Notes: generated by a model not told the origin, from the sequence alone. A DNA stretch of 64,000 bases from Anaerolineales bacterium (GCA_034430615.1 DAOUEJ010000017.1:11079-75078); one strand, 5' to 3'. Numbered from the stretch's first letter, positions 1,604-30,564 are shown. A program made the numbers and translations.

Positions 1604-1606
1604 GCC

Positions 1607-2647: not shown

Positions 2648-2710
2648 AGGAACACCACGTTCACACGTGATAGGAGCCCGGAGATCCGGGTAGACAAATT
2701 CGAGATGTTT

Positions 2711-4290: not shown

Positions 4291-5578
4291 CCGCCTGCCT
4301 CACACCGATCGTGAAAAGACGGAAACCCGCTCGTTCCCAGGCTGCTTTCTCGAAGATGCGGCGGGTATCGACAATGGTGCGGGCCTGGGTCATGCTCGCA
4401 ACTGCGACCGGTTCCAGCGCCCGAAATTGTTCATGATCCACCAGGAGCAGGATCGCCTCAGCCTCAACGAGCGCAGACTGGAGTGTCCCGGCGGCTTGTG
4501 CACCTTCGGCTGTGGCTTGAAGTGCGAAGGGTTCAAACGTCGCCACCCGCGCGCCTGCCTGGACCAGCAAGCGGACGACTTCCAACGCCGGACTTTCACG
4601 CAGGTCATCCACATTGGCTTTGTAGCTCAAACCCAGTGCCGCGATGCGCTTGCCGTCCAGTTTGCCCAACGCGCGCCGGATGAGCTCGAGCACCACAGCC
4701 GGTTGACCATCGTTGACGACACGCGCCTGACGAATCAAACCACTGACTTCAGGTGCGGCCTCGACCAGGAACCACGGATCGACGCTGATGCAGTGCCCGC
4801 CAACGCCCGGTCCCGGGTTCAAAATCTCGACTCGTGGATGCAGGTTGGCCAATTCAATCGCCCGCCATATATCGATACCGAAAGTATCACCGAGCCGCGA
4901 AAACTCGTTGGCGATGGCAATGTTCACATCGCGGTAGGTATTCTCCATGAGCTTCACCATCTCGGCGGTAGTCGAGTCGGTGAGCAGGATTTCGCCCCGC
5001 ACAAAGCTGGCGTAAAGATCACGGCCAGCCTCGGAGGAGGCCTGGTTTACACCACCGATGACGCGGGCGTTCTCGATCAACTCGTGCAGGATCTTGCCTG
5101 GCAGCACTCGCTCCGGTGAATACGCCAGGAAGAAATCCTCCCCGGCCGATAGCCCGCTTTGCTCGAGTATCGGCGCAAGCAGATCGAGGGTTGTGCGCGG
5201 TGGCGAAGTTGACTCAAGCACCACCAGATTGCCGCGCTGCAAGTGCGGAACGATCGACTCGGTGGCGGAGCGCACGTATTGCATATCGGCTCGTTTGTCA
5301 TCCGTGATCGGGGTAGGAACAGCAATGATGAACGCATCGGCCGGTCCGGGCGCTTCGCTGACCGTTAGGTTGCCTGATCGAAAGGCGGCCTGCACCAGGG
5401 CCCGTAAACCCGGCTCCTGGATGTGGATCTCACCATTTCGCAGGACATCCACAACCTGGCTGTTGACATCGACCCCGAGTACCCGCATGCCATGCGTCGC
5501 AAAAGTGCTTGCGGTTGGCAGGCCGATGTATCCCAGGCCGAGGATACAAAGAGTATTGAACGGCACATCTGCCTCCAA
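4283..5578 (-). CDS. wecC: UDP-N-acetyl-D-mannosamine dehydrogenase
   Basis: GLGYIGLPTA, AVPTP, SPERVLPG, KLMENTYRDVNIA, PGPGVGGHCI, YKANVDDLRESP; adjacent to wecB. Confidence 0.9.
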   Translation of the reverse strand: MEADVPFNTLCILGLGYIGLPTASTFATHGMRVLGVDVNSQVVDVLRNGEIHIQEPGLRALVQAAFRSGNLTVSEAPGPADAFIIAVPTPITDDKRADMQYVRSATESIVPHLQRGNLVVLESTSPPRTTLDLLAPILEQSGLSAGEDFFLAYSPERVLPGKILHELIENARVIGGVNQASSEAGRDLYASFVRGEILLTDSTTAEMVKLMENTYRDVNIAIANEFSRLGDTFGIDIWRAIELANLHPRVEILNPGPGVGGHCISVDPWFLVEAAPEVSGLIRQARVVNDGQPAVVLELIRRALGKLDGKRIAALGLSYKANVDDLRESPALEVVRLLVQAGARVATFEPFALQATAEGAQAAGTLQSALVEAEAILLLVDHEQFRALEPVAVASMTQARTIVDTRRIFEKAAWERAGFRLFTIGVRQADG

Positions 5579-5685
5579 AAATTGACGAGCTTATTATCCC
5601 ATATCCCTCAAATGCCCGGAAATCAGGGCAAGAGACCTGGTCTGGCTCAGACATGTGCCTGGTTTCCTGCGTTACAATCGTGTTC

Positions 5686-6237: not shown

Positions 6238-7161
6238 ATGGCGTGGCGCATTCTGCTGACTGACGGCCTCGCTCAAGAAGGCCGGGACATTCTTCAAGCT
6301 GAGGCTGAAGTGATCGAATCCAACCTGGCTGATGAACTCGGCGCAGTCGATGCCGTCATCATCCGCAGCCGGACTCGTCTTAACCGCAGCGATATCGCGC
6401 TGGGGATTCCGCGCCTGAAGGTGATTGGCCGGGCTGGCGTAGGCGTTGACAACATCGACCTCGAGGCCGCAAAGGACAACCGGGTAGTGGTGGTCAACGC
6501 GCCAGAAGCCACGACCATCGCCGTTGCCGAGCACACTCTCGCGCTGATGCTTGCCCTTGCCCGACATCTCCCGGCTGCCGATGCGAGTATGCACGCCGGT
6601 GCCTGGGAGAAGTCCGCATATACCGGGGACGAATTACACGGGAAGACTTTGGGCTTGATCGGCCTCGGCCGGATAGGTTCAGCGGTAGCCGATCTGGCCC
6701 GGGTCTTCGGGATGCAAATCCTGGCTTATGATCCCTTCCTCGATGCGGATGATGTCCGGTCCAGGGGCGCTGAGCCGGTTGAATTGGCAGAACTGTTGCA
6801 AACGGCCGATATCGTCAGTGTCCACGTTCCGCACATGGAGACTACACACCATTTGCTTGGCCCGCAGCGATTGCCGCTGATGAAACACGGCGCCTGGTTG
6901 ATCTCGACCTCGCGCGGCGGGGTCATCGATGAACAGGCTTTACTCGAAACGCTCGAGACAGGGCAGGTGGGCAGGGCCGCACTTGATGTCTTCGCCCAGG
7001 AGCCACCGCTCGGCTCAGCCCTGCTCAAGCAGGCAAACATGATACTCACACCCCATATCGGTGGCCAGACCCACGGGGCGCAATCTCGCGTGGCGGAGGA
7101 GATTGCGAACGAGGTGCTGGCAGCGCTGCGTGGTGACAACCTGCGCTGGCGCGTTATTTAG
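6238..7161 (+). CDS. D-isomer 2-hydroxyacid dehydrogenase, SerA-like (no ACT domain)
   Basis: RAGVGVDNID, GLGRIG, AYDP, AALDVF.QEP, TPHIGG; GGAGG SD. Confidence 0.82.
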   Translation: MAWRILLTDGLAQEGRDILQAEAEVIESNLADELGAVDAVIIRSRTRLNRSDIALGIPRLKVIGRAGVGVDNIDLEAAKDNRVVVVNAPEATTIAVAEHTLALMLALARHLPAADASMHAGAWEKSAYTGDELHGKTLGLIGLGRIGSAVADLARVFGMQILAYDPFLDADDVRSRGAEPVELAELLQTADIVSVHVPHMETTHHLLGPQRLPLMKHGAWLISTSRGGVIDEQALLETLETGQVGRAALDVFAQEPPLGSALLKQANMILTPHIGGQTHGAQSRVAEEIANEVLAALRGDNLRWRVI

Positions 7162-7183
7162 AGCTACTCAGATAGGAGATACG

Positions 7184-8689
7184 ATGGGCAAAAAAATCGA
7201 GGCTCTGCGTGAATTACTGGGTGTTGTCGCGGACCTAACCGCGGCGGCAGCCTTGCTTGGTTGGGATCAGCAGACATACATGCCGTCCGGCGCAGCCGGC
7301 GGGCGCGCAATGCAGTTAGCCACCCTGAGCACGTTGGCGCATGAGCATTTCGTATCCGACGAGATGGGGGCCGCGATAGAAGCAGCCAAGGCTGAAGCCA
7401 AGGACCTTGCACCCGATTCGGACGAGGCGCGCCTGGTGCGAAAGACCGAGCACGATTACTTGAAAGAGATCAAGGTCCCTTCATCCTGGGTGAGTGAATA
7501 CTCACGTGCGACCGCCATGGCCCACCAGGACTGGGAGCAAGCAAGAGCCGAGGCGGACTTCAAACGCTTCCAGCCTCACTTAGAAAAGATCGTCGAACTC
7601 CGGCGCCATTATGCGGATTTCTTCGCACCCTATGACCATCTCTACGATCCACTGCTTGATGATTTTGAACCCGGGATGAAGACCGCCGAGGTGAAAGCCG
7701 TCTTCGACGCCCTCCGGCCGCGTCAGGTCGAACTGGTCCAGGCGATCTTCGAACAAGGCCGGCCGGTGGACGATTCCTTCCTGCACCTGAACTACGATCT
7801 CGACAAGCAGTGGAATTTCGGGGTTGAGGTCATCACAGCGTTCGGCTACGATTTTAAACGTGGCCGGCAGGATAAGGCCGTCCACCCCTTCACGACCTCT
7901 TTCGGGCTCGACGATGTCCGCATCACCACCCGGCTGTATGAAGACTACTTCAGCACCGCGCTGACGGGGACCATGCACGAGGCCGGTCATGCCCTGTACG
8001 AGCAGGGAATAAAATCGACCCTCGGACGCACGCCGTTGGAGGCCGGGGCTTCACTGGGGATGCACGAATCGCAATCCCGGATGTGGGAGAACCTGATCGG
8101 ACGCAGCAAGCCGTTCTGGAAGGCCTACTTCCCCAAACTGCAGGGTGTCTTCCCGCAACAGCTTGGCAACGTCGCAATGGAAGATTTCTACCGGGCGATG
8201 AATAAAGTCGAACGGACATATATCCGTGTCGACGCTGATGAAGCGACCTATAACCTGCACATCATGCTGCGCTTTGAATTGGAGATAGCACTGATGGACG
8301 GATCCCTGGCAGTAAAGGATCTTCCCGAAGCGTGGAATACCAAGTTCGAAGATTTTCTGGGCATCATCCCGCCCGATGATGCAAAGGGTGTGCTTCAGGA
8401 TGTGCACTGGTCGGGTGGCATGATCGGCTATTTCCCCACCTACTCTCTCGGGAACTTGATGGCCGCTCAACTGTGGGAGAAGATCGGCCAGGACATACCC
8501 AACCTGGAAGAGCAGATCGAACGCGGGCAGTTCGGCGCACTTCTGGGATGGCTGCGCGAGAATATCCACCAACATGGCGCGAAATTTGAGCCGATCGAAC
8601 TTCTCACGCGCGTAACCGGTAAAGGCCTGGATGCAGATCCCTATATGCGCTATCTGACGGGCAAGTACTCGGAGATCTACGAGCTCTAA
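7184..8689 (+). CDS. Carboxypeptidase, peptidase family M32
   Basis: HPF, HEAGH (HExxH), HESQS, QDVHW, YFPTY motifs; AGGAGA SD before ATG 7184. Confidence 0.93.
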   Translation: MGKKIEALRELLGVVADLTAAAALLGWDQQTYMPSGAAGGRAMQLATLSTLAHEHFVSDEMGAAIEAAKAEAKDLAPDSDEARLVRKTEHDYLKEIKVPSSWVSEYSRATAMAHQDWEQARAEADFKRFQPHLEKIVELRRHYADFFAPYDHLYDPLLDDFEPGMKTAEVKAVFDALRPRQVELVQAIFEQGRPVDDSFLHLNYDLDKQWNFGVEVITAFGYDFKRGRQDKAVHPFTTSFGLDDVRITTRLYEDYFSTALTGTMHEAGHALYEQGIKSTLGRTPLEAGASLGMHESQSRMWENLIGRSKPFWKAYFPKLQGVFPQQLGNVAMEDFYRAMNKVERTYIRVDADEATYNLHIMLRFELEIALMDGSLAVKDLPEAWNTKFEDFLGIIPPDDAKGVLQDVHWSGGMIGYFPTYSLGNLMAAQLWEKIGQDIPNLEEQIERGQFGALLGWLRENIHQHGAKFEPIELLTRVTGKGLDADPYMRYLTGKYSEIYEL

Positions 8690-9095: not shown

Positions 9096-9464
9096 ATGGC
9101 AATAATCCTCGTCGTGGACGACCAGACACCGACGCTTGACCTGATGGCGGCAACGATCCGCATGCTTGGGCATGATCCGCTCCTAGCGCAATCTGCACAG
9201 CGCGCATTGGATCTCATCGCCGAGTCGCCGCCTGATCTGGTGCTGTTGGATTTAATGATGCCTGGAATGAACGGTCTCGAAATGCTCACCCAACTGCGCT
9301 CGATGCCTACCGGCGGAACCTTGCCCGTGGTTGTGATCACCGCCGGTGGCGAATACGATATCAAGGATCGAGTCCTGGAGGCGGGAGGGACCGCATGCCT
9401 GCAGAAACCGATCCATGTCGAACAACTGGCAACCATGATCCAGAGCGTCCTGCATGATGAATGA
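9096..9464 (+). CDS. Single-domain response regulator (receiver)
   Basis: ILVVDD, PDLVLLDLMMPGMNG, VITA, QKP motifs. Confidence 0.9.
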   Translation: MAIILVVDDQTPTLDLMAATIRMLGHDPLLAQSAQRALDLIAESPPDLVLLDLMMPGMNGLEMLTQLRSMPTGGTLPVVVITAGGEYDIKDRVLEAGGTACLQKPIHVEQLATMIQSVLHDE

Positions 9465-10551
9465 GAAAGCGGTGCGTTCCTCGATCACCATCCTTGAGGG
9501 GGATCAAACCGGACAGGAGTTACTTGAGGAAGCGCTGCGCGTCCTCGACCCTGACGTGAGCAGGGTGCCTTTGACATTTGAACGCTTCGACCTGAGCCTG
9601 TCCAACCGCAGAGCCACGAGCAATCAAGTTATTCTCGATGCGGCCGAGTCGATGAAGGGCTGCGGGTTGGGCTTGAAGGCCGCGACCATCACGCCCACCG
9701 ATCCCGATGACGTTGGCAGCCCGAACGCGATCCTGCGCGAAGCGATCGATGGCCGGGTGATCCTGCGCACAGGCCGGCGCATCCCCAACATCCGCCCGGT
9801 AGGGGGTGTGCATGCTCCGATCTCGGTCGTACGCATGGCCGTCGGCGGGGCCTACGGCGCGCAGGAGTGGCGCGAGGTTGAGGAGAACGGTCAGGAGGTC
9901 GCCTTCCGCACCGAACGCATCTCGCGCCGCACCTGCCGTTCGGTGGCCGAGTTCGCCTTCCAGCATGCTGAGCGAACTGGGGCAAAAGTTTTCGGCGGGC
10001 CCAAGTTCACGGTCAGTCCACTTTATGAGGGGATGTTTAAGGAAGAGCTAGATCAGGCGGCCGCACGTCATCCCAACGTCCGCTACCAGCCACAGTTGAT
10101 CGATGCCACCTACGCCCTGCTGCTTCAGAATGCTGGGGAGGCGCTTGTGATCCCGGCCCTCAACCGCGATGGCGATTGCCTCTCGGACCTGGTCCTGCAG
10201 ATGTATGGTTCAATTGCTGGATCTGAATCGCTCGTACTCGCTTTCGACGAATCGGGCACAAAGGTCTGCGCCGTGATGGCGGAAGCCCCGCATGGGACTG
10301 CGCCAGCGCTCGAAGGCAAAAATATCGCCAACCCGATGGCCATGATCCTGGCTGGGGCAGCGCTTTTGAATTATGTGGGCAGTCTAGCCGCTGAGCATGC
10401 CTCGCGAGCGATTTACGAAGCGACCTTCGAAGCCGTGTACCAGGGCACAGCTACACCAGACATGCGCGGCCAGGCAAATACGCAGGAGTTCACCGACGAA
10501 GTGATCCGCCGCGTGACCGCCAAGCTTGAGGTTTGGTCCAGCCTGGCTTGA
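9454..10551 (+). CDS. Isocitrate/isopropylmalate dehydrogenase family (IDH/HICDH-like, probably NAD-dependent)
   Basis: LEGDQTGQE, SPNAILR, NRDGDCLSD, EAPHGTAPALEGKNIANP motifs. Confidence 0.87.
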   Translation: MMNEKAVRSSITILEGDQTGQELLEEALRVLDPDVSRVPLTFERFDLSLSNRRATSNQVILDAAESMKGCGLGLKAATITPTDPDDVGSPNAILREAIDGRVILRTGRRIPNIRPVGGVHAPISVVRMAVGGAYGAQEWREVEENGQEVAFRTERISRRTCRSVAEFAFQHAERTGAKVFGGPKFTVSPLYEGMFKEELDQAAARHPNVRYQPQLIDATYALLLQNAGEALVIPALNRDGDCLSDLVLQMYGSIAGSESLVLAFDESGTKVCAVMAEAPHGTAPALEGKNIANPMAMILAGAALLNYVGSLAAEHASRAIYEATFEAVYQGTATPDMRGQANTQEFTDEVIRRVTAKLEVWSSLA

Positions 10552-10599
10552 TCGGCGGTCCTGAGCAACGTACATGACCAGAAGCTAGTTTGAGAGCTT

Positions 10600-11526
10600 A
10601 TGATGCCCGCGAAGTGGTCCTTCTTCAAGATAAGTGCACTCTCCCTGGCGCTGTCATTGGGCGCATGCAACTCTGCTCTTTCCCAAGGGCCCATCGATGT
10701 TCCGGTTGTTTCGAGCGCTGAAATCTCGCCCCCCGCAGCCTCACAACTAGAAACACCGACTGCGTTCACTCCACCCCCGCTCAGCGCGTCCACGCCAGCG
10801 ATCGTGATCGAACCTCCGGCCGTCATCCCGACCCCGACATACCCGCCGGCCTCGGTTGGTGTCTCCCAAGAGGAACTGGCCATTTTCTCCCCTGGACCGG
10901 GTTCAATGGTGCTGTCCCCGATCAGCTTGCATGGCTACGGAGGCCCCAGTCTAAACAACATGGTCGAGCTGCGCTTGATCGGCGAAGATGGACGGATCAT
11001 CTCGCGCGGTAAAACGGTTCTTTACTCCTACCCTGGACGTCCGGGTCTGTTCTACGGCCAAATTCCCTTTACTTCGCCGGCGCTGGCTGAAGAAGCCTGG
11101 CTGCAGGTCCGGTCCTTCGGCGATCGTTATGGCCTGCTCAAACACCTGACAACCGTACCGATCACACTCCTCACAAGCGGAGAAGCCCGCATCACGACCA
11201 GCTTGCACGGACCCGAGAAGATCACGATTTTTACGCCTCCTGAAGGTTCGGCTGTTCAGGGTCCGAGAATATTCATCCAGGGAGCGGCCTGGACCGATGG
11301 CGGTGGCACGCTCTCGGTCGAGATTCTCGATTTGCGCGGTACGGTCATTGCTACAGCCGAAGTGGAGATCGATGCCCCCAAAGCAGGTGCACTGGGCACG
11401 TTTCAGCTTGATCTCGAACTTCCGCTTGACATTTCTCAGTGGGTCCGCATCGCTGTCTTTGAACATGGTGGTGAGATCCCCGGTGTAACCCATTACAGCA
11501 GTGTTCAGATCTGGCTTTGGCGTTGA
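10600..11526 (+). CDS. Lipoprotein with Pro/Thr-rich linker and two Gmad2-like Ig-fold domains
   Basis: Lipobox LGAC; two repeats of I.(S/T)P.(P/E)G.(V)..P(I)..(H/Q)G...(L/V).(L/I)...G..I. Confidence 0.68.
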   Translation: MMPAKWSFFKISALSLALSLGACNSALSQGPIDVPVVSSAEISPPAASQLETPTAFTPPPLSASTPAIVIEPPAVIPTPTYPPASVGVSQEELAIFSPGPGSMVLSPISLHGYGGPSLNNMVELRLIGEDGRIISRGKTVLYSYPGRPGLFYGQIPFTSPALAEEAWLQVRSFGDRYGLLKHLTTVPITLLTSGEARITTSLHGPEKITIFTPPEGSAVQGPRIFIQGAAWTDGGGTLSVEILDLRGTVIATAEVEIDAPKAGALGTFQLDLELPLDISQWVRIAVFEHGGEIPGVTHYSSVQIWLWR

Positions 11527-11588
11527 GTGCTTACCCTGATTTTGGCACCGATCCTGTAACCAGGATGACATAGCCGGGAAATGCCGGG

Positions 11589-11597
11589 TGATATAAT
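11589..11597 (+). promoter_or_regulatory. Extended -10 promoter element for the VanW gene
   Basis: TGaTATAAT 20 nt upstream of ATG 11618. Confidence 0.6.
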
Positions 11598-11617
11598 CCG
11601 CCTCCTTCGAGACCAAA

Positions 11618-13453
11618 ATGCAGAATCCTCAAGCACTCCAACGCCGAGATCCAAGCACGTTGATTCTGCGCGCCCTGGCGCTGGTCATCAGCACGGTAAG
11701 CATTCTGATCCTGGGAGCTGTGATTCTCATCCTCGGCATCCGGCTCGCGTATTCGGGGCGTGCGCTCCCGGGTGTATTTCTATCCGGTCTTCCGCTGGGC
11801 GGGAAAACCCAGGCCGAGATCGTTGAATTGCTGGCGCCCGTCTATCCCTACGCCGAGCAGGGCACGATCATCCTGACTGATGACGAGGCCAACTGGATGC
11901 TGACCCCGGCTGACCTCGGGGTAGCCATCGATATAGAAGCCATGGCCCAGCAAGCGCTGGGCGTAGGACGACAGGGCACATTCACGCAACGAATCGAAGA
12001 CCAAATCAATGCCTGGTACCGCGGCCTCTCGGTTGCCCCGATTGTCCGCCTCGATAAGATCGTGGGAGGACACACGCTGGGTGGGATCGCGGCCCAGGTT
12101 GACCGGGCGATGATCGAAGCCAGCATCTACATCGAGGGGACACAGGTGATCAGCACACCTGGCCAGGTCGGTCGAGAACTTGACATGGCAGCCACACTGC
12201 TTGCACTGGAAGAGCCCGTTCACGCAATGAACGACGCTCTGATCCCACTCGCCATCGTCGATGCCCCACCCGTCATACTCGACGCCACTCCGCTCGCAGC
12301 CGTAGCCCAGGAGCTGCTGCGCCAGCCGCTGCATATCACCGCTGACGGCGCTGAGGACATCGTCCTCCAGCCAGGAACCCTGGCCAGCATGCTCGATTTT
12401 GCGGTGAGCGGCGAGGGCGCGGCCGCAGCGTATACGATGCAGATCGACCCCGCTCAAACACGGGCCTTACTTGAGCCCCGCACGCCCGAATTGGAGCGTA
12501 GGCCTGAAAACGCCCGTTTTATCTTCAACGACGACACCCGGCAGCTGGATCTGCTCACACCTGCCATGATTGGTCGGACACTGGATATCGACGCCTCCAT
12601 CACTACCATCAACGAAGGCTTGAATGCCGGACAGCACAGCATCGGGCTTGCGTTTTCGTTTGAAACCCCACCAGTCGCCGATCAGGCTACTGCGGAAGAA
12701 CTCGGCATCTCTGAAGCGGTCAGTGTCGTGTCGACCTATTTCTCCGGATCCAGCCGCGAACGCATCCAGAACATCAGCACCGCTTCCTCCGCTTTCCATG
12801 GCTTGCTGATCCCACCCGGCGGGACGCTTTCTATGGCGGACATCCTCGGGGATATCAGCCTCGACAGCGGCTACGCCGAGGCGTTGATTATCTATGGCGA
12901 TAAAACGATCAAGGGAGTCGGGGGTGGCGTATGCCAGGTGAGCACGACCCTCTTCCGGGCCGTCTTCTTCGGTGGGTACGAGATCGTTGAGCGCCACCCG
13001 CACGCTTACCGCGTGGGCTACTACGAGCAGGGACCTGGCTCACCTGGACCGGGGCTGGATGCTACCGTTTTTGTTCCACTCGTCGATTTTAGATTCCGCA
13101 ACGATACGCCGTACTGGCTGCTCATGGAAACCTACATCTACGGCAACCAGCTGCTGTGGAAGTTTTACTCAACCTCGGACGGCCGTTCTGTAACCAGGAG
13201 CAGCCAGGTTTCGAACGAGATCGATGCCCCCAAACCACTTTACAAGGAAAACAGCGACCTACCCGAGGGGAAGATCAACCAGATCGACTACCAGGCAGAT
13301 GGCATGGATGTCGTTGTGTACCGTACTGTAAAGGTGGGCGGTGACATACTCCACGAGGATGTGATTAAAACCCACTACCTGCCCTGGCGGGCGATCTACG
13401 AATTCGGGCCTGGAACCGATCTTCCTAGCGGGGTAGAGGTTGAAGATAATTAA
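11618..13453 (+). CDS. VanW-family protein with N-terminal TM and putative peptidoglycan-binding domain
   Basis: VGGGVCQVSTTLFRA, ERHPHAYRVGYYE, GLDATV...DFRFRNDT; C-terminal G5-like G.DV.VYR.V. Confidence 0.88.
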   Translation: MQNPQALQRRDPSTLILRALALVISTVSILILGAVILILGIRLAYSGRALPGVFLSGLPLGGKTQAEIVELLAPVYPYAEQGTIILTDDEANWMLTPADLGVAIDIEAMAQQALGVGRQGTFTQRIEDQINAWYRGLSVAPIVRLDKIVGGHTLGGIAAQVDRAMIEASIYIEGTQVISTPGQVGRELDMAATLLALEEPVHAMNDALIPLAIVDAPPVILDATPLAAVAQELLRQPLHITADGAEDIVLQPGTLASMLDFAVSGEGAAAAYTMQIDPAQTRALLEPRTPELERRPENARFIFNDDTRQLDLLTPAMIGRTLDIDASITTINEGLNAGQHSIGLAFSFETPPVADQATAEELGISEAVSVVSTYFSGSSRERIQNISTASSAFHGLLIPPGGTLSMADILGDISLDSGYAEALIIYGDKTIKGVGGGVCQVSTTLFRAVFFGGYEIVERHPHAYRVGYYEQGPGSPGPGLDATVFVPLVDFRFRNDTPYWLLMETYIYGNQLLWKFYSTSDGRSVTRSSQVSNEIDAPKPLYKENSDLPEGKINQIDYQADGMDVVVYRTVKVGGDILHEDVIKTHYLPWRAIYEFGPGTDLPSGVEVEDN

Positions 13454-13476
13454 ACCCGCCCCTTCCAGCCATTAAT

Positions 13477-13505
13477 TTGACAATCCAGCGGCTCGCGTTT
13501 ATGTT
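13477..13505 (+). promoter_or_regulatory. Sigma70-type promoter for the Trm112-HEAT pair
   Basis: TTGACA-17 bp-TATGTT. Confidence 0.55.
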
Positions 13506-13540
13506 CTACCGTCTCGTGCATTCTTGTTCTCAACGAGGAG

Positions 13541-13774
13541 ATGGTCATGATTAGTGAAGATCTGCTCGAAATCTTGCGCTGTCCGAATTGTGTCCGCGAA
13601 AGAGAGGGAGCCCTGAAGCTCCACCGCGACACCTGGCTGATCTGCCAGGAGCCTGATTGCGGGCGCAAGTATCCGATCAAGGACGACATCCCGGTGATGC
13701 TGATCGAGGAGGGTGATCGCTGGGTGGACACTGCGGTCGAAGACCTGCCCGTGCCGCCTCCCGTGGATGGATGA
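13541..13774 (+). CDS. Trm112-family protein (zinc-ribbon type)
   Basis: LLEILRCPNC...LIC...CGRKYPIKDDIPVML. Confidence 0.82.
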   Translation: MVMISEDLLEILRCPNCVREREGALKLHRDTWLICQEPDCGRKYPIKDDIPVMLIEEGDRWVDTAVEDLPVPPPVDG

Positions 13775-14363
13775 AGCCAGTCTACCGGTAGAGGCGCTCC
13801 TCGGAGATCTAAACTCCGGTGACGATGTCCGTGCCGAGCAAGCCGTTCACCATATCGCTGGCCGCGGCCCGAGCGTCATCCCGCACCTCGTCCAACAACT
13901 CTCATCACCGAATCCCGATCGACGCTGGTGGGCTATGGCCGCCCTAGCGCTGATCGACCATACCGATGCCCGCATCTCAATCGCCCAATCGCTGCGAGAC
14001 CCCGATGTAAGCGTGCGCCAATGCGCCGCGCTTGGCCTGCGCCAGCAACCGACTCAAGACGCTATTCCCGCTCTACTCGAAGCCATGCATGACCCGGACC
14101 AACTGCTCGCCCGGCTCGCCGGTGATGCACTCATTGCTCTGGGAGCGTTGGCCGTCTCCCCTCTGACAGAAGTGCTGCGTGATATCAATCCATCCGTGCG
14201 AATTGAAGCTGCCCGGGCGCTGGCTCATATCAACGATTCGGCCGTCATCGCTCCGCTCTTCGCAGCGCTAGAAGACCGTTCAGCGTTAGTCATCTATTGG
14301 GCGGAACTCGGATTGCAGCGGATGGGTGTGGGGATGGTTTACTACAACCCGGGGCCAGCTTAG
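13767..14363 (+). CDS. HEAT-repeat (PBS-lyase-like) protein
   Basis: Repeated L.D.D..VR..AA.AL units; ATG overlaps the Trm112 stop region. Confidence 0.8.
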   Translation: MDEASLPVEALLGDLNSGDDVRAEQAVHHIAGRGPSVIPHLVQQLSSPNPDRRWWAMAALALIDHTDARISIAQSLRDPDVSVRQCAALGLRQQPTQDAIPALLEAMHDPDQLLARLAGDALIALGALAVSPLTEVLRDINPSVRIEAARALAHINDSAVIAPLFAALEDRSALVIYWAELGLQRMGVGMVYYNPGPA

Positions 14364-14848
14364 CTTAGAAACAGCCAGACGACCCAAGTTGCGATCATTG
14401 CCACGCCAAGCGCGAATTTCACCAGGACCGAAGCCCCGTAGCCAAGCCCCATGCCAAACGTAGCCCGCAGAGCGGCCTCGACATCCTGCTGGCGCACATA
14501 CTCCATAATGAACGTCCCGGCCAGCATCCCAACGACCAGGCCCAGCGGGCCGCCCACCAGAAGCCCGGCCAGGCCCAGAACGAGCCCAGCAAAGATGCTG
14601 AGCAGCGAGGCCCCCCCTTTACGTGCACCAGCTCCGCTCATCCAGACCTCCGAGAAGATCCCGATCACACCCAACACCGAGATAATCCCGAAGAGCCAGC
14701 CCCCGCTCGCTCCCCAGCCCACCAGCAGCGCATAACCCAGGGCCGCGATCCAAATCAGGGGCAGGTCGGGCAAGACTGGAAGTATCGTACCCAGCAGGCC
14801 GACCAACATCAGCAAGCCAGTCAGGATCGAGTAGAGCACTTCCATCAC
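14360..14848 (-). CDS. DUF456-family membrane protein
   Basis: [14 protein letters not shown]...GARKGGAS...G.LVGGPLG..G...G.F..EY pattern. Confidence 0.78.
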
Positions 14849-16134
14849 GCTGTTTCCCGGGCTTCGATCCGCTCCACCCTGCCCATGTAGGGCCGCAGTA
14901 CCTCTGGGATGATGATGCTCCCGTCGGCCTGCTGGTAGTTTTCCATCACCCCGATCACGGTGCGCGGAAGCGCCAGGCCAGATCCGTTCAGCGTATGGAC
15001 AAACTGCGGGCGGGCATCAGCCTCCGACCGGTAGCGGATATTGGCCCGGCGGGCCTGGAAAGTCTCACAGTTGCTGCACGAGCTCACTTCGAGCCACTCG
15101 CCGCTCCCCGGCGCCCAGAGCTCGATATCAAACTTCTTGGAGGCCGTGAAGCCAAGGTCACCGGTGACCATCTCGATCACGCGGTGTGGAATGCCGAGCC
15201 CGCGGCAGACCTCCTCGGCGTTCGTCACCAGGTCTTGAAGCTCATCGTAGGAACGCTCGGGCGTGGTGAAGTGGTACATCTCGACCTTGTCGAATTGATG
15301 GCCGCGCTTGATCCCGCGCACATCGCGTCCGGCGGAAAATTTCTCGCGCCGGAAGCAGGGTGAATACGCTACATACTTGCGGGGAAGATCCTCCTCCTCC
15401 AGGATCTCATCCCGGTGCAGGTTGGTGAGCGGGATCTCGGCTGTGCCGATCAGCCACAGATCCTCTTCCGCATCGTGGTAAATGTTGTCGCGGAATTTCG
15501 GCAGCTGCCCAGCCCCCCACATGCATTCCTCCCGTACCACCGCTGGTGGGTAGACCTCCGTGTAGCCACGTGAAGTGTGCAGATCCAGCATCCATTGGAT
15601 CAGTGCCCTCTGAAGATGCGCGCCGAGGCCGAACATGACGTAGAAGCGGCTGCCGGAGAGCTTCACGCCCCGCTCAAAGTCAATCAGTCCTAATTGAGAA
15701 CCAAGCTCCCAGTGAGGAACCGGGGCAAATCCGAATTCGGCCGCCGTCTTCGGCTCGCCTTCCTGGCGCAGGATCCGGTTCTCGCTTTCATCGGCTCCGA
15801 CCGGGACGCTCGCATGAGGCAGGTTCGGAACCAGATACATCGCCTGCTCGAGATCATGGTCTACCTGGCGCAGATCCTGCTCGAAATCCTTGATGCGCTG
15901 GTTGACCCCACCCATTTCCTCGATCAGTGGCGCACGCTCGGCCTGCTCTTTGATGGAACCGATCTTCTTCGAGGTCACGTTGCGCTCATGGCGCAGATCC
16001 TCCAGCTCCTGCAGGATCTGGCGCCGGCGTTCATCCAGCTGCAGGATCTCATCGATCGGGGCTTCGGCCTGGAGCGTGGCGATGGCGGCCTTCACCTGCT
16101 CCGGGTTTTCACGAATGGTCTTAATATCTAACAT
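14845..16134 (-). CDS. serS: Serine--tRNA ligase
   Basis: [22 protein letters not shown]...[32 protein letters not shown]. Confidence 0.97.
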
Positions 16135-16164: not shown

Positions 16165-16410
16165 AACAAAGCCTCCCCATCCGCAGGACGAGGAGGCATA
16201 CTCGTGGTGCCACCTGCATTTGCCGTCAAAACGGCCTCTGGAGCTATAACGGGCTTACCCGGCAACCCCTTACGGTAGGTTTCTACCCCTTCGGGAGCGA
16301 CTGGCTGAGCTCAGCCGGCGAAGTGGATTCACCCCGGTTCGCATGCCGCCTTCACAGCCTGCGGCGGCTCTCTGGATGCTCAGCCAGGGATACTGGTCTT
16401 CGCGCGAGTC
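16165..16410 (-). ncRNA. T-box riboswitch (Ser, specifier UCC) leader of serS
   Basis: Minus strand: stem I closed by GCGAAG/CTTCGC (16403-16318) with AGTA, AGAGAG bulge and GCTGTGAA loop; specifier GAA-TCC-A (16327-16325); T-box AATGCAGGTGGCACCACG (16220-16203); terminator GCCTCC...GGAGGC-TTTGTT. Confidence 0.93.
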
Positions 16411-16520: not shown

Positions 16521-16549
16521 TTGACAATCGGTGAGGCTGCGCTTATCCT
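16521..16549 (+). promoter_or_regulatory. Sigma70-type promoter of the SPT-like operon
   Basis: TTGACA-17 bp-TATCCT. Confidence 0.65.
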
Positions 16550-16679
16550 CCATTGGCTTATGGGTGGGGGGCAGAAGTTGCCCGGATGCCCATCGCTGCT
16601 TTAGCACACACCGACCCATGTTCACGGCCGGTGTGGACCAGGCTGCAGGCAGAAGACCGAAACGAAAGGGAGTATGTGG

Positions 16680-17861
16680 ATGGACATCTTCGAGAAGTGC
16701 GATTCTTTCGTCATCGCCCGTATCGCGAAAGCATCTGGTCTTTATCCCTACTTTTTAACGATCGAAGACAGCGAGGGCACCGAGGCCGTGATCGATGGGC
16801 ACCGGGTCCTCATGCTCGGGTCCAACAACTACCTTGGCCTGACGACCGACCCGCGCGTGCGGGCGGCGGCGATCAAAGCAACCGAAACCTACGGCACGAG
16901 CTGTACGGGCTCGCGCCTTCAGAACGGGACACTGGCCCTGCACCTGGAGCTGGAAGAACGGCTAGCAAAATTCGTCGGCAAGGAAGCCGCACTGGTCTTC
17001 AGCACCGGCTTCCAGGTCAACCTGGGCGTGATTTCCTGCTTGATCACGCGTAACGACGTCGTCGTTACCGATAAAGAAGACCATGCCAGTATCATTGACG
17101 GCGCCATGCTTGCTATGGGCGACCTGCGCCGCTTTGGCCACAACGACATGAAGCACCTCGACCGGGTGTTGGAAGGACTGGACGCCGACAGCGGTGCATT
17201 GGTCGTCGTCGACGGACTGTACAGCACTGGCGGTGATCTGGCGCCGCTACCGGAAATGATCGAGGTCTGCCGCCGGCACCAGGCGCGTCTGATGGTCGAT
17301 GACGCGCACGGCCTGGGCGTGATGGCGCACGGGCGCGGCACCGCCGAGCACTTCGGCGTAACAAAAGACGTTGATCTGATCATGGGCACCTTCAGCAAGT
17401 CCTTCGCCTCGCTGGGCGGGTTCATCGCCGGCGACGAGAATATTGTGCACTACATCCAGCACAACGCCCGCTCGTTCATTTTCAGCGCGGCCATGCCGGC
17501 CTCGAACGTGGCGGCGGCGCTGGCCTCGCTCGAAATCATTGAGAACGAACCCGAGCGCGTCGATCGCTTGTGGCAGATTACCGAACGCATGCGCAGCGGT
17601 CTGAAAGAGATGGGTTTCAACACTGGCAGCAGCGTTTCACCCATCATCCCGGTCATCATCGGCGAGATGGAACCTGCCTTGAATGCCTGGAAAAAGCTCT
17701 TCGATGCTGGTGTTTACACCAACGCCTTCGTACCACCGGGCGTCCCGGAAGGCCGCTGCCTGCTGCGCACGAGCTACATGGCGACCCATACCGATGACCA
17801 GATCGACCGCGCCCTGAATATCTTCGGCGAGGTAGGACGGGAGCTGGGTCTGATTGACTGA
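16680..17861 (+). CDS. PLP-dependent alpha-oxoamine synthase, serine palmitoyltransferase-like
   Basis: LYPYF, MLGSNNYLGL, GTSCTGSRLQNGT, DHASI, VDDAHG, GTFSKS (PLP Lys). Family is certain; SPT specificity is inferred from these motifs. Confidence 0.85.
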   Translation: MDIFEKCDSFVIARIAKASGLYPYFLTIEDSEGTEAVIDGHRVLMLGSNNYLGLTTDPRVRAAAIKATETYGTSCTGSRLQNGTLALHLELEERLAKFVGKEAALVFSTGFQVNLGVISCLITRNDVVVTDKEDHASIIDGAMLAMGDLRRFGHNDMKHLDRVLEGLDADSGALVVVDGLYSTGGDLAPLPEMIEVCRRHQARLMVDDAHGLGVMAHGRGTAEHFGVTKDVDLIMGTFSKSFASLGGFIAGDENIVHYIQHNARSFIFSAAMPASNVAAALASLEIIENEPERVDRLWQITERMRSGLKEMGFNTGSSVSPIIPVIIGEMEPALNAWKKLFDAGVYTNAFVPPGVPEGRCLLRTSYMATHTDDQIDRALNIFGEVGRELGLID

Positions 17862-18834
17862 CCTCGCCCTGGTTACGGGCGCGACCGGTTTCGTCGGCTC
17901 TGCACTGTGCCGCAAGCTGCTGGCTGAAGGCTACAAGGTGCGCGCCCTGCACCGCAGCCGTTCCGCTCTACAAGCTTTAGACGGTCTCAAGGTCGAACGC
18001 TTCGAAGGTGACATCCTGCAGCCGGACACACTCGTGCCGGCGCTGCAAGGCGTGCGCTGGCTTTTCCACGCCGCCGCCCGATCGGATTACTGGCGCGACG
18101 CTTCCGGGGTTCTGCAATCTGCGGTCGAGGGCACACGCAATGTCCTGCTCGCGGCGCTGCATGCCGGCGTGGAGCGCGTGGTCCTGACAAGTTCATCTTC
18201 CGCCATGGGCATCCCACAGGGCGATGAGCTGCTCGACGAAACCAGCACTTTCAACCTGCCGCCGGAACGGTTTCCTTACGGTTATGCCAAACGCCAATCG
18301 GAGCTGGTCGCTCTCGAGCTCACCGAGCAGGGTTTAGCTGTAGTCATCGTCAACCCGAGCATCGTGCTTGGCGCAGGGGACATCAACCAGATCAGCGGCT
18401 CGCTGGTAGTACAGTCGGCGCGTGGGCATGCGTTCCTGTGGGTTGACGGTGGCACAAATCTGATCCATGTCGATGACGTCGCCTGCGGCCATCTTGCCGC
18501 ACTGCGGCGGGGCCGGAGCGGCGAGCGCTACATCCTTGGCCACGAAAACCTCACCCACCGGCAGGTTTTTAAAAGGCTGGCTGAGATCACCGGCCAGCGG
18601 AAACCCTGGTTTCACCTACCCGGAGCCCTCATCAACCCGGCCGCAATTGGCGTGGACCTGGTGCGGAAGGTGCTCCCGCTGCCACTGGACGGAAACCAAC
18701 TCCGCATGAGCGCCAACTACCTGTGGTACGACACGGGCAAGGCAACGGACGAACTGGGTTTTTCCGCCAGGATTGGTTATGAAACCGCCGCCCGCCAGGC
18801 ATACGATTGGTACCGCCAGCAGGGGATCCTGTGA
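17854..18834 (+). CDS. Extended SDR, NAD-dependent epimerase/dehydratase (HpnA/DFR-like reductase)
   Basis: TGATGFVG, FHAAA, TSSS, YGYAK (YxxxK), NPSIVLG; overlaps the upstream gene by 8 bp. Confidence 0.88.
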   Translation: MTDLALVTGATGFVGSALCRKLLAEGYKVRALHRSRSALQALDGLKVERFEGDILQPDTLVPALQGVRWLFHAAARSDYWRDASGVLQSAVEGTRNVLLAALHAGVERVVLTSSSSAMGIPQGDELLDETSTFNLPPERFPYGYAKRQSELVALELTEQGLAVVIVNPSIVLGAGDINQISGSLVVQSARGHAFLWVDGGTNLIHVDDVACGHLAALRRGRSGERYILGHENLTHRQVFKRLAEITGQRKPWFHLPGALINPAAIGVDLVRKVLPLPLDGNQLRMSANYLWYDTGKATDELGFSARIGYETAARQAYDWYRQQGIL

Positions 18835-18846
18835 CAGGGTCCAGGT

Positions 18847-19764
18847 ATGGCACATTCCCACATGCAAAACATACAGGCAGCTGATAGCATGCCGCACACC
18901 CTCCAGGTTCCCTTCACCATTCGCAATGACGAGTGTGACGCCTACGGTCACCTGAACAACGCCGTCTACCTGCGCTACATGCAGGAGGCCGCTTTTCGCG
19001 CTTCGAGCGATGCCGGGCTGGGACGCGACCAATATGCGGCCATGGGCCGTTACTGGCTGATCCGGGAGACCGAGATCGAGTACCTGCAGGTGCTGCCGGC
19101 CGAGGAGACGATCACCGTCAAGACCTGGAATGAGGGCATGCGGCGCACAACCGCCCGCCGCCGCTACGTTTTCAGCCGGCCAAACCATGATGAACCCGCG
19201 GCGAGCGCCTGGACTGATTGGGTCTACCTCAAACGCGAAACAGGGCAGCCGGCCAGGATCCCTCCCGAGATTCATGACGCATTCTTTCCCGAAACCGGCC
19301 GCGCGCCTGGCTTCACGCGCACACCTTTCCCGCAGGTTCCACCGGCGCCGCCGGGCATATTCCGGCTGGAGCGGCGTGTAGAATGGCGCGATATCGACCC
19401 CATGCAGCATCTCAACAACGCCGCCTACCTCTCGTACGTGGAAGACTGCGCAGTGCAGTTGGCAAACCATTTCGGCTGGTCCTTTGAACAGTGGGGAAAG
19501 CACGGCCTGGCTTTCGTCGCCCGCCAGCACCGCATCCAATACCTGCAGCCTGTGCTACTCGAAGACGAGCTCGAGATCAGCACCTGGCTCTTCAACGTAC
19601 GGCGCACCTCTGCCACCCGCTACTACGCGCTGCGCCGGGCTGCCGATGGCGAATTGATGGCCCAGGTGGTAACACTCTGGGCTCTGATCGATCTGGAGAG
19701 TGGCCGGCCAACTCGCTTCCCGGCCTCCTTCCATGAGGTTATCGGCCCGAACATCGCGGAATAA
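18847..19764 (+). CDS. Tandem hot-dog acyl-ACP/acyl-CoA thioesterase
   Basis: Two 4HBT-like halves, each with D..(G/Q)HLNNA.YL.Y..EA/DC. Confidence 0.85.
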   Translation: MAHSHMQNIQAADSMPHTLQVPFTIRNDECDAYGHLNNAVYLRYMQEAAFRASSDAGLGRDQYAAMGRYWLIRETEIEYLQVLPAEETITVKTWNEGMRRTTARRRYVFSRPNHDEPAASAWTDWVYLKRETGQPARIPPEIHDAFFPETGRAPGFTRTPFPQVPPAPPGIFRLERRVEWRDIDPMQHLNNAAYLSYVEDCAVQLANHFGWSFEQWGKHGLAFVARQHRIQYLQPVLLEDELEISTWLFNVRRTSATRYYALRRAADGELMAQVVTLWALIDLESGRPTRFPASFHEVIGPNIAE

Positions 19765-19769
19765 TGCCT

Positions 19770-19795
19770 GTAGGGAGGCGGCGCCGTGTCCCTAT
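19770..19795. repeat. REP-like palindrome copy a (degenerate)
   Basis: GTAGGGA-GGCGGCGCCGTG-TCCCTAT. Confidence 0.55.
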
Positions 19796-20417
19796 GCGAA
19801 ACGTACCGATAATTCACTTTCTACCCCTGATTGCGCTTGCATTGGGGTTATCAGTTTGCATGGGGGGTTGTTGGCCATCATCGACGGTTGTCAATCATCC
19901 GAGCAACGTGGATCTTGCCACGGTTGCGGCGCGCTATCTGGACGACCATATCTTCGCTCCCACCTTCGGTGGGCACGTTTTCTGCGAAACCGAGATTCTG
20001 CACTTAGAGCGGCAAGGATCGGCGATCAAGGCCTACGTGTGGGCCCTATGCATCGAATATTACAAGGAAGGCCAAACCATGCAGATGGGAACTGCCGTCA
20101 GCGAACCCCTGGTGGTCTACATGATCGAGCATGAGGACAGCACCCTGGCGTCAGGCTTTGCCGAATCCCGCGACGGAGCACTCTTCGCTGAAGATATCCA
20201 GCAGATGTTCCCGGACGAAGCTGTCGAGCGCATGTGCCTGGGTGACATCCCCTGCAGGAATGCGCGCGTTCACCGGCTGGAGGGAGGGATCGCAGAACAG
20301 GTCAGGCGGGCTTATAACCTGCCGATCGCGACTGCACCCTGGAACGAAGGTTTTCGATATTCCCCTTGGCAGCTCATCCTTGCCGTACAAATACATGGCC
20401 CGATGGGTATGGATTAA
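19794..20417 (+). CDS. Hypothetical lipoprotein/exported protein
   Basis: Hydrophobic signal ending MGG-C; globular 207-aa ORF; no family recognised. Confidence 0.65.
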   Translation: MRNVPIIHFLPLIALALGLSVCMGGCWPSSTVVNHPSNVDLATVAARYLDDHIFAPTFGGHVFCETEILHLERQGSAIKAYVWALCIEYYKEGQTMQMGTAVSEPLVVYMIEHEDSTLASGFAESRDGALFAEDIQQMFPDEAVERMCLGDIPCRNARVHRLEGGIAEQVRRAYNLPIATAPWNEGFRYSPWQLILAVQIHGPMGMD

Positions 20418-29255: not shown

Positions 29256-29334
29256 CCCCCGTACCAAGCCTCGCCAGAAGCTGGAGTACAATCGCCCATA
29301 GCAGCCCATGCTCGCAGACTTCAAGGAGGGTAGG

Positions 29335-30564
29335 ATGCCCGAAGCTGTCATCGTTTCTGCGGTGCGTACCGCGATCGGAGCCCACGGCGGTGTACTTTCC
29401 GCTGTGCGACCAGACGACCTGGCGGCGCTGGTGATCCGGGAGGCGCTCGAACGAGCCTCTGTGCCAGGGGAGGCGGTCGAGGAGGTCTACCTGGGATGCG
29501 CCAACCAGGCAGGTGAGGACAACCGCAACATCGCCCGTATGGCAACCCTCCTGGCGGGCCTGCCGGTCGAGGTTGCTGCCGTGACCTTCAACCGTCTGTG
29601 CTCCTCTGGCCTGCAGGCGATCAACGCGGCCGCACGCGCCATCCGCGTCGGCGAAGGAGACGTTTTCGTCGCCGGCGGCGTGGAGAGCATGTCGCGTGCA
29701 CCGTTCGCAGTCCCCAAACCCGATCAGGCTTACCCCTGGGGCAACGTAACCATGTGGGATACCACGCTCGGCTGGCGTTTCCCCAATCCGGCCCTGAAGG
29801 AAAGTTACGGCAACGACGCGATGGGCGAAACGGCCGAGAACATTCACGACCTGTACCCGGGGATCACACGCGAAAAGCAGGATGCATTCGCGTACGAGAG
29901 CCACCGGCGAGCCGTGGCCGCGATCCAAAGCGGGCTTTTCAAGGACGAGATCGTGCCAGTGACCATCCCCCAGCGTAAAGGTGATCCGATCGTAGTCGAC
30001 ACGGACGAGCGCCCACGGAGCGACACAACTCTGGAAGCGCTTGCTCGCCTAAGACCCGCCTTCCGGGGTGAAGGAACCGTGACGGCCGGGAACGCCTCTG
30101 GCATCAACGACGGGGCTGCGGCGCTGGTTTTGATGTCCGACCTGCGCGCGGCCGAACTCGGTATAAAACCGATGGCGCGGATCATAAGCAGCGCCGCCGC
30201 CGGGGTTGAACCACGCCTGATGGGCCTGGGCCCGGTTTCTGCAACGCAGAAGGCGCTCAAGCGTGCCGGCCTATCGGCCTCCGACCTCGGATTGATCGAG
30301 TTAAATGAAGCCTTCGCCGTCCAGGCCTTGGCTGTGATGGCCGAGCTGGGTTTGCCGCACGAGCTAACGAATGTCAACGGCGGCGCCGTCGCATTGGGCC
30401 ACCCTCTGGGAGCCTCGGGTGCCCGCATCATGGTCACGCTGCTGCATGAGATGGGGCGGCGTGCACCCGATGCCAGGCATCCTTACTACGGACTGGCAAC
30501 GCTGTGCGTTGGCGTCGGCCAAGGTGAGGCGACGGTCATCGAATGGGTTGGCGATCGTTCCTGA
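29335..30564 (+). CDS. Thiolase (acetyl-CoA C-acyltransferase), PaaJ/PcaF-like
   Basis: [35 protein letters not shown]. Confidence 0.92.

Follow-up and report, generated by a model that had tools for sequence, protein, structure and literature searches.

Spt-like proteins have been reported from 218 metagenome-assembled genomes (MAGs) of Chloroflexota (Ding et al., ISME J 2024; PMC11334938), and in the Black Sea the Spt-like genes of Anaerolineae correlate with the lipids Cer, Gly-Cer and Lys-Cer (PMC11334938); a follow-up from 2025 describes the same Chloroflexota/Anaerolineae link for sediments (PMC12619533). Chloroflexota, in particular Anaerolineae, are among the most abundant bacteria of anoxic sediments, sludge and the subsurface, and metalipidomics credits them with a large, overlooked pool of environmental sphingolipids, by Spt-like genes and correlation only. 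In the bacterial Spt-bCerS-CerR pathway, the ceramide synthase bCerS and the reductase CerR are often not co-localised (PMC11334938), and CerR is described as an NDUFA9-like protein that is periplasmic in Caulobacter (PMC11087976). A different enzyme, BT_0972 of Bacteroides thetaiotaomicron, is a 3-ketosphinganine reductase of the classical short-chain dehydrogenase/reductase (SDR) type, ~31 kDa in size, related to Tsc10/FVT1 and carrying a Gly-X-X-X-Gly-X-Gly motif (PMC9278070). Here we analyse a 64,000-nt stretch of DNA from an Anaerolineales bacterium (GCA_034430615.1, DAOUEJ010000017.1:11079-75078; hereafter, the window), in which a gene for a serine palmitoyltransferase (SPT)-type enzyme is followed on the same strand by genes for an extended SDR and a tandem thioesterase (16680-19764). 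Judging from sequence comparisons, we consider it likely that these genes form an operon for the biosynthesis of sphingoid bases, the backbone of sphingolipids.

Open reading frame (ORF) calling places the three genes on the plus strand, at 16680-17861 (gene 1, SPT-type, 393 amino acids), 17854-18834 (gene 2, extended SDR, 326 amino acids with a TTG start) and 18847-19764 (gene 3, tandem thioesterase, 305 amino acids). Genes 1 and 2 overlap by 8 nt at the junction CTGATTGACTGA, and 12 nt separate the SDR gene from the thioesterase gene. A longer ORF for gene 1 would begin at 16674 and encode 395 amino acids; homologues in databases have 393 amino acids and the ATG at 16680 is the only one conserved among relatives, and the latter position is therefore the right start.

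Gene 1 encodes a protein of the Pfam family Aminotran_1_2, in which the motifs YPYF, GxxCxGSRxxNGT and GTFSKS, picked out by a prior sequence-only reading of this DNA, are located at residues 22-25, 72-84 (GTSCTGSRLQNGT) and 236-241 (393-residue numbering), respectively. The best NCBIfam model is SerpalmtaseCFB (CFB-type SPT) with 508 bits, against a cut-off of 640, followed by the beta-proteobacterial SPT (414), bioF (380) and Kbl (348). Among structures in the PDB, the highest score is that of Sphingobacterium multivorum SPT (SmSPT, 425 bits), with sphingomonad SPTs at 293-318 and a Thermus BioF/Kbl-type enzyme at 289 bits; cysteate acyltransferases reach 254-262, Kbl ~228, BioF ~214, ALAS at most 186 and CqsA 129 bits, with ALAS, CqsA and cysteate acyltransferase having been compared with gene 1 through their phmmer scores only (129-262 versus 425 bits). 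The protein is 52% identical to SmSPT over the full length, 49% to the SPT of Parabacteroides distasonis and 48% to actinobacterial Spt, with 40-41% identity to sphingomonad SPTs and Firmicute BioFs, 35% to E. coli BioF and 33% to Kbl.

In neighbour-joining trees (100-200 bootstraps) that included E. coli BioF, Kbl and two Firmicute BioFs from real bio operons, gene 1 falls within an SPT-type clade (bootstrap 96-96.5%) that comprises the three crystallised enzymes SmSPT, SpSPT and SwSPT, the acyl carrier protein (ACP)-linked Spt of Roseomonas, and Spt from the Spt-GNAT-SDR clusters of Rubrobacter and Streptomyces; E. coli BioF, Kbl and both Firmicute BioFs lie outside. The phylogeny with validated SPT, BioF and Kbl thus groups 16680-17861 with the former and not with either of the latter. 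All 12 residues of SmSPT assigned to pyridoxal phosphate (PLP) and L-serine (N52, Y54, G80, S81, H138, S185, D210, A212, H213, T241, S243 and K244; PMC10196870) are kept in gene 1 and in 86 of 86 related MAG sequences. The catalytic K240 is found within GTFSKS, a motif called characteristic of SPT (PMC10196870), the PLP-holding H135, D207 and H210 are present, and the serine that precedes the catalytic lysine (Ser243 of SmSPT) is a glycine in E. coli BioF and Kbl. The profile and PDB scores, the tree (96%) and the residues bear out the earlier preference for an SPT-like enzyme over BioF or Kbl, and argue strongly that gene 1 encodes an SPT-type alpha-oxoamine synthase, its activity being predicted.

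The same data bear on a housekeeping function, under which gene 1 would be a BioF of biotin synthesis, or a Kbl acting with an SDR-type threonine dehydrogenase, and its likeness to SPT merely phylogenetic. Public annotations do name homologues of gene 1 BioF or generic aminotransferase (JGI labels them 8-amino-7-oxononanoate synthase), the bioF and Kbl scores (380 and 348 bits) are substantial, and homologues of gene 1 throughout Anaerolineae show a high degree of conservation (~60% identity). SDR-type threonine dehydrogenases also exist, and an artificial L-threonine dehydrogenase is a weak PDB match (8e-9) of a variant SDR at one related locus, L084. However, bioF and Kbl score below their own cut-offs as well as below the SPT models at 508 and 414 bits, the trees exclude BioF, Kbl and the BioFs from Firmicute bio operons with 96% support, and gene 1 has GTFSKS rather than a G-K motif. 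Furthermore, Pfam scans of ~50 ORFs revealed no bio genes in the 64-kb window, and there are none in the related loci; the PDB matches of the window SDR at E<=1e-8 do not include threonine dehydrogenases; and the operon of a relative (L111, see below) contains a bCerS-like GNAT gene. A housekeeping role is thus very improbable, and the combination of Kbl with an SDR-type threonine dehydrogenase was ruled out by the scores, the tree and the PDB matches.

The SDR gene lies directly downstream of the SPT gene in every one of the 15 distinct loci whose SPT shares at least 68% identity with that of the window, namely, the window itself, L001-L004, L081, L083, L084, L086-L088, L094 and L110-L112, and the SPTs of the SDR-paired loci are monophyletic (support 95-96%). 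The closest reference locus, L001, belongs to an uncultured Chloroflexota MAG (CAVPZJ01; gene 1, 95% identical), L002 (JARRJK01) and L003 to Anaerolineales MAGs, and L081 to the MAG GCA_040757415.1. The overlapping TTG-start junction, CTGATTGACTGA, is common to 14 of 16 sequences, and the lists of the best 120 matches of the SPT and of the SDR, retrieved independently, have 8 contigs in common. Together with a promoter motif shared by 13 loci (see below), the pair and its junction substantiate the functional coupling of SDR and SPT that had been proposed earlier. Conservation of the block of three genes is partial: the SPT-SDR pair recurs in all 15 loci, but the thioesterase in just 8. An early result, according to which the trio was confined to relatives at least 89% identical (80 reference-genome loci, with an SDR neighbour in L001-L004), proved to be a sampling artefact caused by the use of one genome per species and by pattern-limited retrieval; homologues from metagenome assemblies showed a much wider clade. 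In the long-read assembly of L001 (6389-11095), the matches to serS, the SDR and the thioesterase are each broken into two frames, most likely reflecting assembly frameshifts rather than pseudogenes.

Other SPT-like genes of Anaerolineae occur in different surroundings. In L009, L018, L044 and ~25-30 further loci, which account for most Anaerolineae with an SPT-like protein 55-66% identical to that of the window, the gene for this protein is divergent to mevalonate genes encoding HMG-CoA reductase, an HMG-CoA synthase-like protein, thiolase and a DUF35/OB-fold protein. In the same loci, a gene for an AcrB/MMPL-like resistance-nodulation-division transporter of 1,400-1,650 amino acids adjoins, often with one for a polysaccharide deacetylase (e.g., L009:1772-5976 and 9442-14346); SDR, thioesterase and GNAT genes are not among the recurrent neighbours. 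An MMPL-like lipid exporter encoded beside SPT might have a part in exporting sphingolipids. A more distant SPT-like protein, 50% identical to that of the window, is encoded on the Priestia megaterium plasmid CP109762.1 (L092:3629-7215), where its gene is divergent from those for a membrane acyltransferase-family protein and a methyltransferase; possibly, an amino-lipid locus of a cultured Firmicute has gone unrecognised here.

A connection to ceramide synthesis comes from L111, in the Anaerolineae MAG GCA_011174845.1, where the genes for an SPT (72% identical) and a window-type SDR (57%) are followed by one for a 381-amino-acid GNAT protein (L111:5036-6181), which takes the place of the thioesterase. 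This protein is 43% identical to the GNAT of locus L041, 41% to that of Rubrobacter, 39% to that of Streptomyces and 32-33% to the product of a gene in the Roseomonas ACP-Spt region; the family to which the L111, Rubrobacter and Streptomyces genes belong is the bCerS of the literature (PMC11087976; PMC11334938). The SPT-SDR-GNAT order in L111 ties the SPT-SDR pair to ceramide synthesis, with the window-type SDR as the candidate reductase. In L041 (5888-10385), from a Chloroflexota MAG, a bCerS-like GNAT gene, an ORF of 211 codons and an SPT-like gene share one strand, the GNAT gene lying ~1 kb upstream of spt. A convergent myo-inositol-1-phosphate synthase gene just downstream of the SPT-like gene in this locus hints at inositol-containing sphingolipids.

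The sequence-only reading had noted neither bio genes nor a GNAT-type bCerS nearby, and this holds across the 64-kb window, where Pfam scans of the ~50 ORFs and tblastn searches with the Rubrobacter, L041 and L111 GNATs found no GNAT/bCerS gene. Yet Anaerolineae are rich in bCerS-like GNATs: the homologues at E<=1e-20 number 689, including those of the cultured Aggregatilinea lenta and Thermoflexus hugenholtzii. They are linked to SPT in L111 and L041 and unlinked in L113-L116, and the nearest relatives of the L111 GNAT (63-65% identical) are encoded between lgt and nfeD/band-7 genes, away from SPT. Given that these homologues are abundant and often unlinked to SPT, the lack of bCerS in the window says little about the genome.

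Gene 2 matches the Pfam families Epimerase (122 bits) and 3Beta_HSD and contains the extended-type glycine motif TGATGFVG (residues 8-15) and YGYAK (142-146). The NCBIfam models HpnA (hopanoid-associated SDR, TIGR03466; 288 bits, cut-off 368), SdmB (a sterol enzyme; 154) and OleD (the 2-alkyl-3-oxoalkanoate reductase of the olefin pathway; 118) were recovered, and the best PDB match is 3WJ7 (Gox2253), with 206 bits. It is not a classical SDR, the adh_short match being partial and below the cut-off (23 bits), nor is it HpnA, because 288 bits fall short of 368 and the surroundings of the trio in the window lack squalene-hopene cyclase and hpn genes. Judged from these matches, gene 2 encodes an extended SDR of the HpnA/OleD/3beta-HSD-like branch, and its relatives OleD, SdmB and the sterol 3-dehydrogenases reduce 3-keto groups of lipids. 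The N-terminus, MTDLALVTGATGFVG, has the Rossmann motif from residue 8 on and no signal peptide. The second beta-strand is followed by HRSRS, without an acidic residue, which suggests NADPH as the cofactor.

An analogy between gene 2 and Caulobacter CerR, drawn by the sequence-only reading, holds at the level of the Pfam family Epimerase but probably not at that of the subfamily. For this comparison, the SDR of the Rubrobacter Spt-GNAT-SDR cluster served as a stand-in for Caulobacter CerR, and the actinobacterial clusters and the Roseomonas plasmid cluster as proxies for the Caulobacter CerR and bCerS genes. Whereas the Rubrobacter SDR matches NDUFA9 chains in the PDB (E 4e-21 to 1e-12), no NDUFA9 chain appears among the PDB matches of gene 2 at E<=1e-8, nor among those of the variant SDR of L084. 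The placement of gene 2 is CerR-like nonetheless: proteins of its type are encoded next to SPT in 15 of 15 loci and, in L111, between spt and the bCerS-like GNAT gene. Thus, by context, gene 2 probably works like CerR (compared via the proxy) or KDSR while probably being a member of neither family. We predict that it uses NAD(P)H to reduce the 3-keto group of 3-ketosphinganine or 3-oxo-ceramide.

Several SDR genes at or near these loci deserve separate mention. L004 (9175-10194) and L084 (9175-10185) encode variant SDRs that share 48% identity with one another but 26-27% with that of the window and 31% with the CerR-like Rubrobacter SDR, and that keep the TTG-overlap junction and an N-terminal MT(D/E)xALVTG. 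They were initially read as independent replacements, an interpretation weakened by the conserved junction and N-terminus; extreme divergence and partial recombination behind a fixed junction are equally possible. The window contains a second gene for an HpnA-like extended SDR (33747-34748, minus strand; 133 bits to TIGR03466), 14 kb downstream of the trio, in a region that also has a thiolase gene (29308-30564) and one for a GAF/PAS histidine kinase; L083 has, at a comparable position, a gene for a 364-amino-acid SDR of the Epimerase family.

In the pathway that we propose, the SPT would, very probably, convert L-serine and a long-chain acyl-CoA or acyl-ACP into 3-ketodihydrosphingosine and CO2. 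The conserved translational coupling and the SPT-SDR-bCerS operon of the relative suggest that the cytoplasmic SDR would then reduce the 3-keto group with NAD(P)H, either before or after the base is N-acylated. For the N-acylation itself, which would give ceramide, a bCerS-type GNAT encoded outside the window, elsewhere in the genome, would be responsible.

Several observations weigh against a sphingoid-base pathway, the public annotations quoted above among them. Gene 1 falls under every SPT equivalog cut-off (NF047600, NF047599 and NF047603: 508/640, 414/500 and 340/670 bits, respectively). Ala79 of SmSPT is replaced by Thr in all sequences compared, and F83/L84 by L80/Q81 in the window subclade. 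Serine specificity is not readable from the sequence of gene 1, as no residue pattern proves it. For the most part, the SPT-like genes of Anaerolineae (55-66% identical) lack a neighbouring SDR gene, and gene 2 is 29% identical to the Rubrobacter cluster SDR (E 1e-18, a single comparison), leaving room for another substrate. With the exception of L111, neither the window nor the other SDR-clade loci contain bCerS. Finally, we found no culture-based demonstration of sphingolipids in Chloroflexota in the literature searched.

The SPT scores below the cut-offs and the altered pocket neighbours (A79T in all sequences, F83L/L84Q in the window subclade) would also fit a synthase that used another amino acid or acyl donor (glycine, alanine or cysteate), yielding a non-canonical amino-ketone or amino-alcohol lipid, such as a 1-deoxy-type base, a sulfonolipid-like base or a signalling amino-ketone. 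Ala and Gly are known as poor, but accepted, substrates of SPTs (PMC10196870), and 1-deoxy and sulfated ceramides have been reported from the same environments (PMC11334938). However, the cysteate acyltransferases score 254-262 bits compared to 425 for SmSPT, every SmSPT residue that touches L-Ser, directly or via water, is conserved, and the SPT of S. wittichii likewise has Thr at the Ala79 position. Moreover, a product of the ceramide type would agree with the linkage to bCerS-like GNAT genes seen in L111 and L041. We consider a different donor unlikely, and sphingoid-base synthesis remains the reading that we favour.

Gene 3 is predicted to encode a double hot-dog acyl thioesterase. The protein matches Pfam 4HBT_2 twice and both Acyl-ACP_TE domains (N, 86.6 bits, cut-off 23.7; C, 45.2 bits, cut-off 21), as well as the NCBIfam YbgC/FadM subfamily above the cut-off (94.8 bits). 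Its PDB matches 4gak and 2own are acyl-ACP thioesterases, and each half contains a D-x-D-x-x-x-H-x-NN-x-x-Y motif. The gene follows the SDR gene in 8 of the 15 loci (the window, L001-3, L094, L086, L088 and L112). That it is missing from this position in the other 7 (L004, L081, L083, L084, L087, L110 and L111), and that relatives 45-54% identical stand among unrelated genes (for histidine kinase, CBS, TPR, IS200 and dioxygenase proteins), adds to the points that weigh against the operon as proposed and leaves a dedicated role unproven. These observations, and the match above cut-off to the generic YbgC/FadM model, favour the alternative that gene 3 and the ORF behind it (ORF4) are passengers, the former being a general acyl-CoA/acyl-ACP thioesterase, not dedicated to long-chain-base synthesis and devoid of acyltransferase activity. 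By contrast, wherever gene 3 is present it lies close behind the SDR gene on the same strand (gaps of 12-45 nt), and the thioesterases (52-81% identity) have diverged in step with the SDRs (56-79%), which fits long co-inheritance in one transcript; a supply of free fatty acids would also be biochemically sensible for an acyl-CoA-dependent SPT. In our estimate, the passenger alternative comes close to an even chance.

Under the sphingoid-base reading, gene 3 would be a lineage-specific, facultative component that might free a fatty acid from acyl-ACP or acyl-CoA for re-activation as an SPT substrate, or trim the acyl pool. The suggestion that it supplies or edits the acyl chain was made earlier; the close position behind the SDR gene agrees with it, but the occurrence in only 8 of 15 loci and the relatives elsewhere do not. 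Nothing supports the further suggestion that gene 3 replaces the N-acyltransferase, which is unnecessary given that bCerS-like GNATs are widespread in Anaerolineae.

ORF4 (19764-20417, plus strand, 217 amino acids), which the sequence-only reading did not include, overlaps the thioesterase stop codon by 1 nt (TAATG) and may be the fourth gene of the transcript. This ORF call has no Pfam or NCBIfam match; its N-terminus is signal-peptide- and lipobox-like (LSVC/GGC). Homologues 36-44% identical occupy the same position in L002, L003 and L094-L096 only, and ORF4 is possibly a lineage-specific accessory of the pathway. In L086 (8002-8232) and L112 (6002-6232), an ORF of 76 codons (Pfam Frankia_peptide) follows the thioesterase gene in the place of ORF4.

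More tentatively, the HpnA/OleD-like SDR could represent a third, independently recruited class of bacterial 3-ketosphinganine/3-oxo-ceramide reductase, distinct from the NDUFA9-like CerR and the classical SDR BT_0972 and, within a clade of monoderm Anaerolineales at the family level, obligatorily coupled to SPT in translation, with the thioesterase of some lineages providing a dedicated acyl supply and completing a self-contained long-chain-base module. Taken as a whole, this is a proposal that we incline somewhat against. If true, the reductase step of bacterial sphingolipid synthesis would have been invented at least three times.

The promoter-like site of the operon is of the sigma-70 type and consists of TTGACA (16521-16526) and TATCCT (16544-16549) on the plus strand, separated by 17 nt (16521-16549 in total). 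It is located ~130 nt 5' of the SPT start, within a divergent intergenic region of 540 nt shared with serS, and the transcript is predicted to start near 16556. The site, the 8-nt overlap and the 12-nt gap of the three coupled, same-strand genes are all as originally described. On its own, the site does not exceed chance expectation (2 found versus 1.7 expected in shuffles). However, the exact TTGACA-N16-18-TATCCT motif precedes the SPT-like gene by ~75-190 nt in 13 related loci and was matched once only in ~100 other loci fetched, identifying it as a conserved element. The promoter hexamers are present even in L002 and L003, where an insertion of ~500 nt with a small hydrophobic ORF (~7100-7800 and ~4850-5650, respectively) separates the serS T-box from the SPT promoter. 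A riboswitch or leader in the ~125-nt 5' untranslated region was considered and rejected, because Rfam gave just the serS T-box, on the opposite strand.

The seryl-tRNA synthetase gene serS (14845-16134, minus strand) is preceded by a T-box leader at 16181-16409 on the same strand, the score of which (79.8 bits) is below the Rfam gathering score of 93, although the whole model is covered with E=1.2e-17. A terminator-like hairpin (16197-16171) fits the expression platform of this T-box, and the region is strongly conserved across L001-L003. Farther away, the window contains a cell-envelope sugar cluster (500-5578) encoding two GT1/GT4 glycosyltransferases, a hexapeptide transferase, a UDP-GlcNAc 2-epimerase and a protein of the UDP-glucose/GDP-mannose dehydrogenase family, and a weakly PEMT-like (phospholipid methyltransferase) ORF at 42134-42760.

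Overall, the interpretation with which this analysis started is partly supported. It had regarded the locus as a possibly unreported lipid pathway, but Spt-like genes of Chloroflexota/Anaerolineae, and a correlation between them and ceramides, have been on record since 2024 (PMC11334938); with the pathway already predicted from metagenomes (PMC11334938; PMC12619533), the claim of novelty in the phylum is not supported. What is new here is the conserved, translationally coupled SPT-SDR unit, a predicted reductase that is probably of neither the CerR nor the BT_0972 type, the optional thioesterase and the SPT-SDR-bCerS order in a relative. The pair and the linked bCerS gene of the relative constitute a concrete gene set for expression, which could turn correlation into biochemistry. 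Furthermore, reductases of the gene 2 type may escape homology screens based on CerR or BT_0972, and surveys that require co-localisation of CerR may accordingly undercount complete pathways. Aggregatilinea lenta and Thermoflexus hugenholtzii are cultured candidates for lipid analysis: the species themselves carry bCerS-like genes, and MAGs assigned to their genera contain SPT-like ones.

Among the known systems, gene 1 most resembles SmSPT (PDB 3A2B, 8GUH) and other Bacteroidota SPTs, with which it shares the size, GTFSKS, the contact residues and the grouping in the tree. It differs from SmSPT in coming from Chloroflexota, in scoring under the CFB-SPT cut-off and in the A79T and F83L/L84Q substitutions; and whereas the pathway genes of Bacteroidota are dispersed (PMC11334938), the window SPT is translationally coupled to an SDR. 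Gene 3 resembles FatA/FatB-like (PF01643) and YbgC/FadM thioesterases in being a double hot-dog protein of ~300 amino acids that matches both Acyl-ACP_TE domains, but has the YbgC-type Asp/His-NN in each half and is encoded after SPT-SDR.

As in the Spt-bCerS-CerR pathway of Caulobacter crescentus (bCerS, CCNA_01212; CerR, CCNA_01222) and the actinobacterial clusters, the SPT gene of the window stands beside one for a reductase of the Pfam family Epimerase, to which L111 adds a bCerS-type GNAT. Unlike in those systems, bCerS is not linked in the window and the reductase is HpnA/OleD-like and probably not NDUFA9-like; the gene order also differs, Spt-GNAT-SDR in the actinobacterial clusters (Rubrobacter radiotolerans and Streptomyces plasmids) as opposed to Spt-SDR(-TE, for thioesterase) in the window, and gene 2 lacks a signal peptide, whereas Caulobacter CerR is periplasmic. 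With BT_0972, gene 2 shares the proposed reaction, NADPH-dependent reduction of 3-ketosphinganine, but BT_0972 is a classical SDR and gene 2 an extended SDR of 326 amino acids with TGxxGxxG and the Epimerase/3Beta_HSD fold. The nearest sequence relatives of gene 2 are HpnA, OleD and Gox2253, of which OleD has a long-chain lipid as its substrate, the 3-keto group of which it reduces; gene 2 differs from them in scoring under all equivalog cut-offs, in having no hopanoid or olefin gene context and in being coupled to SPT.

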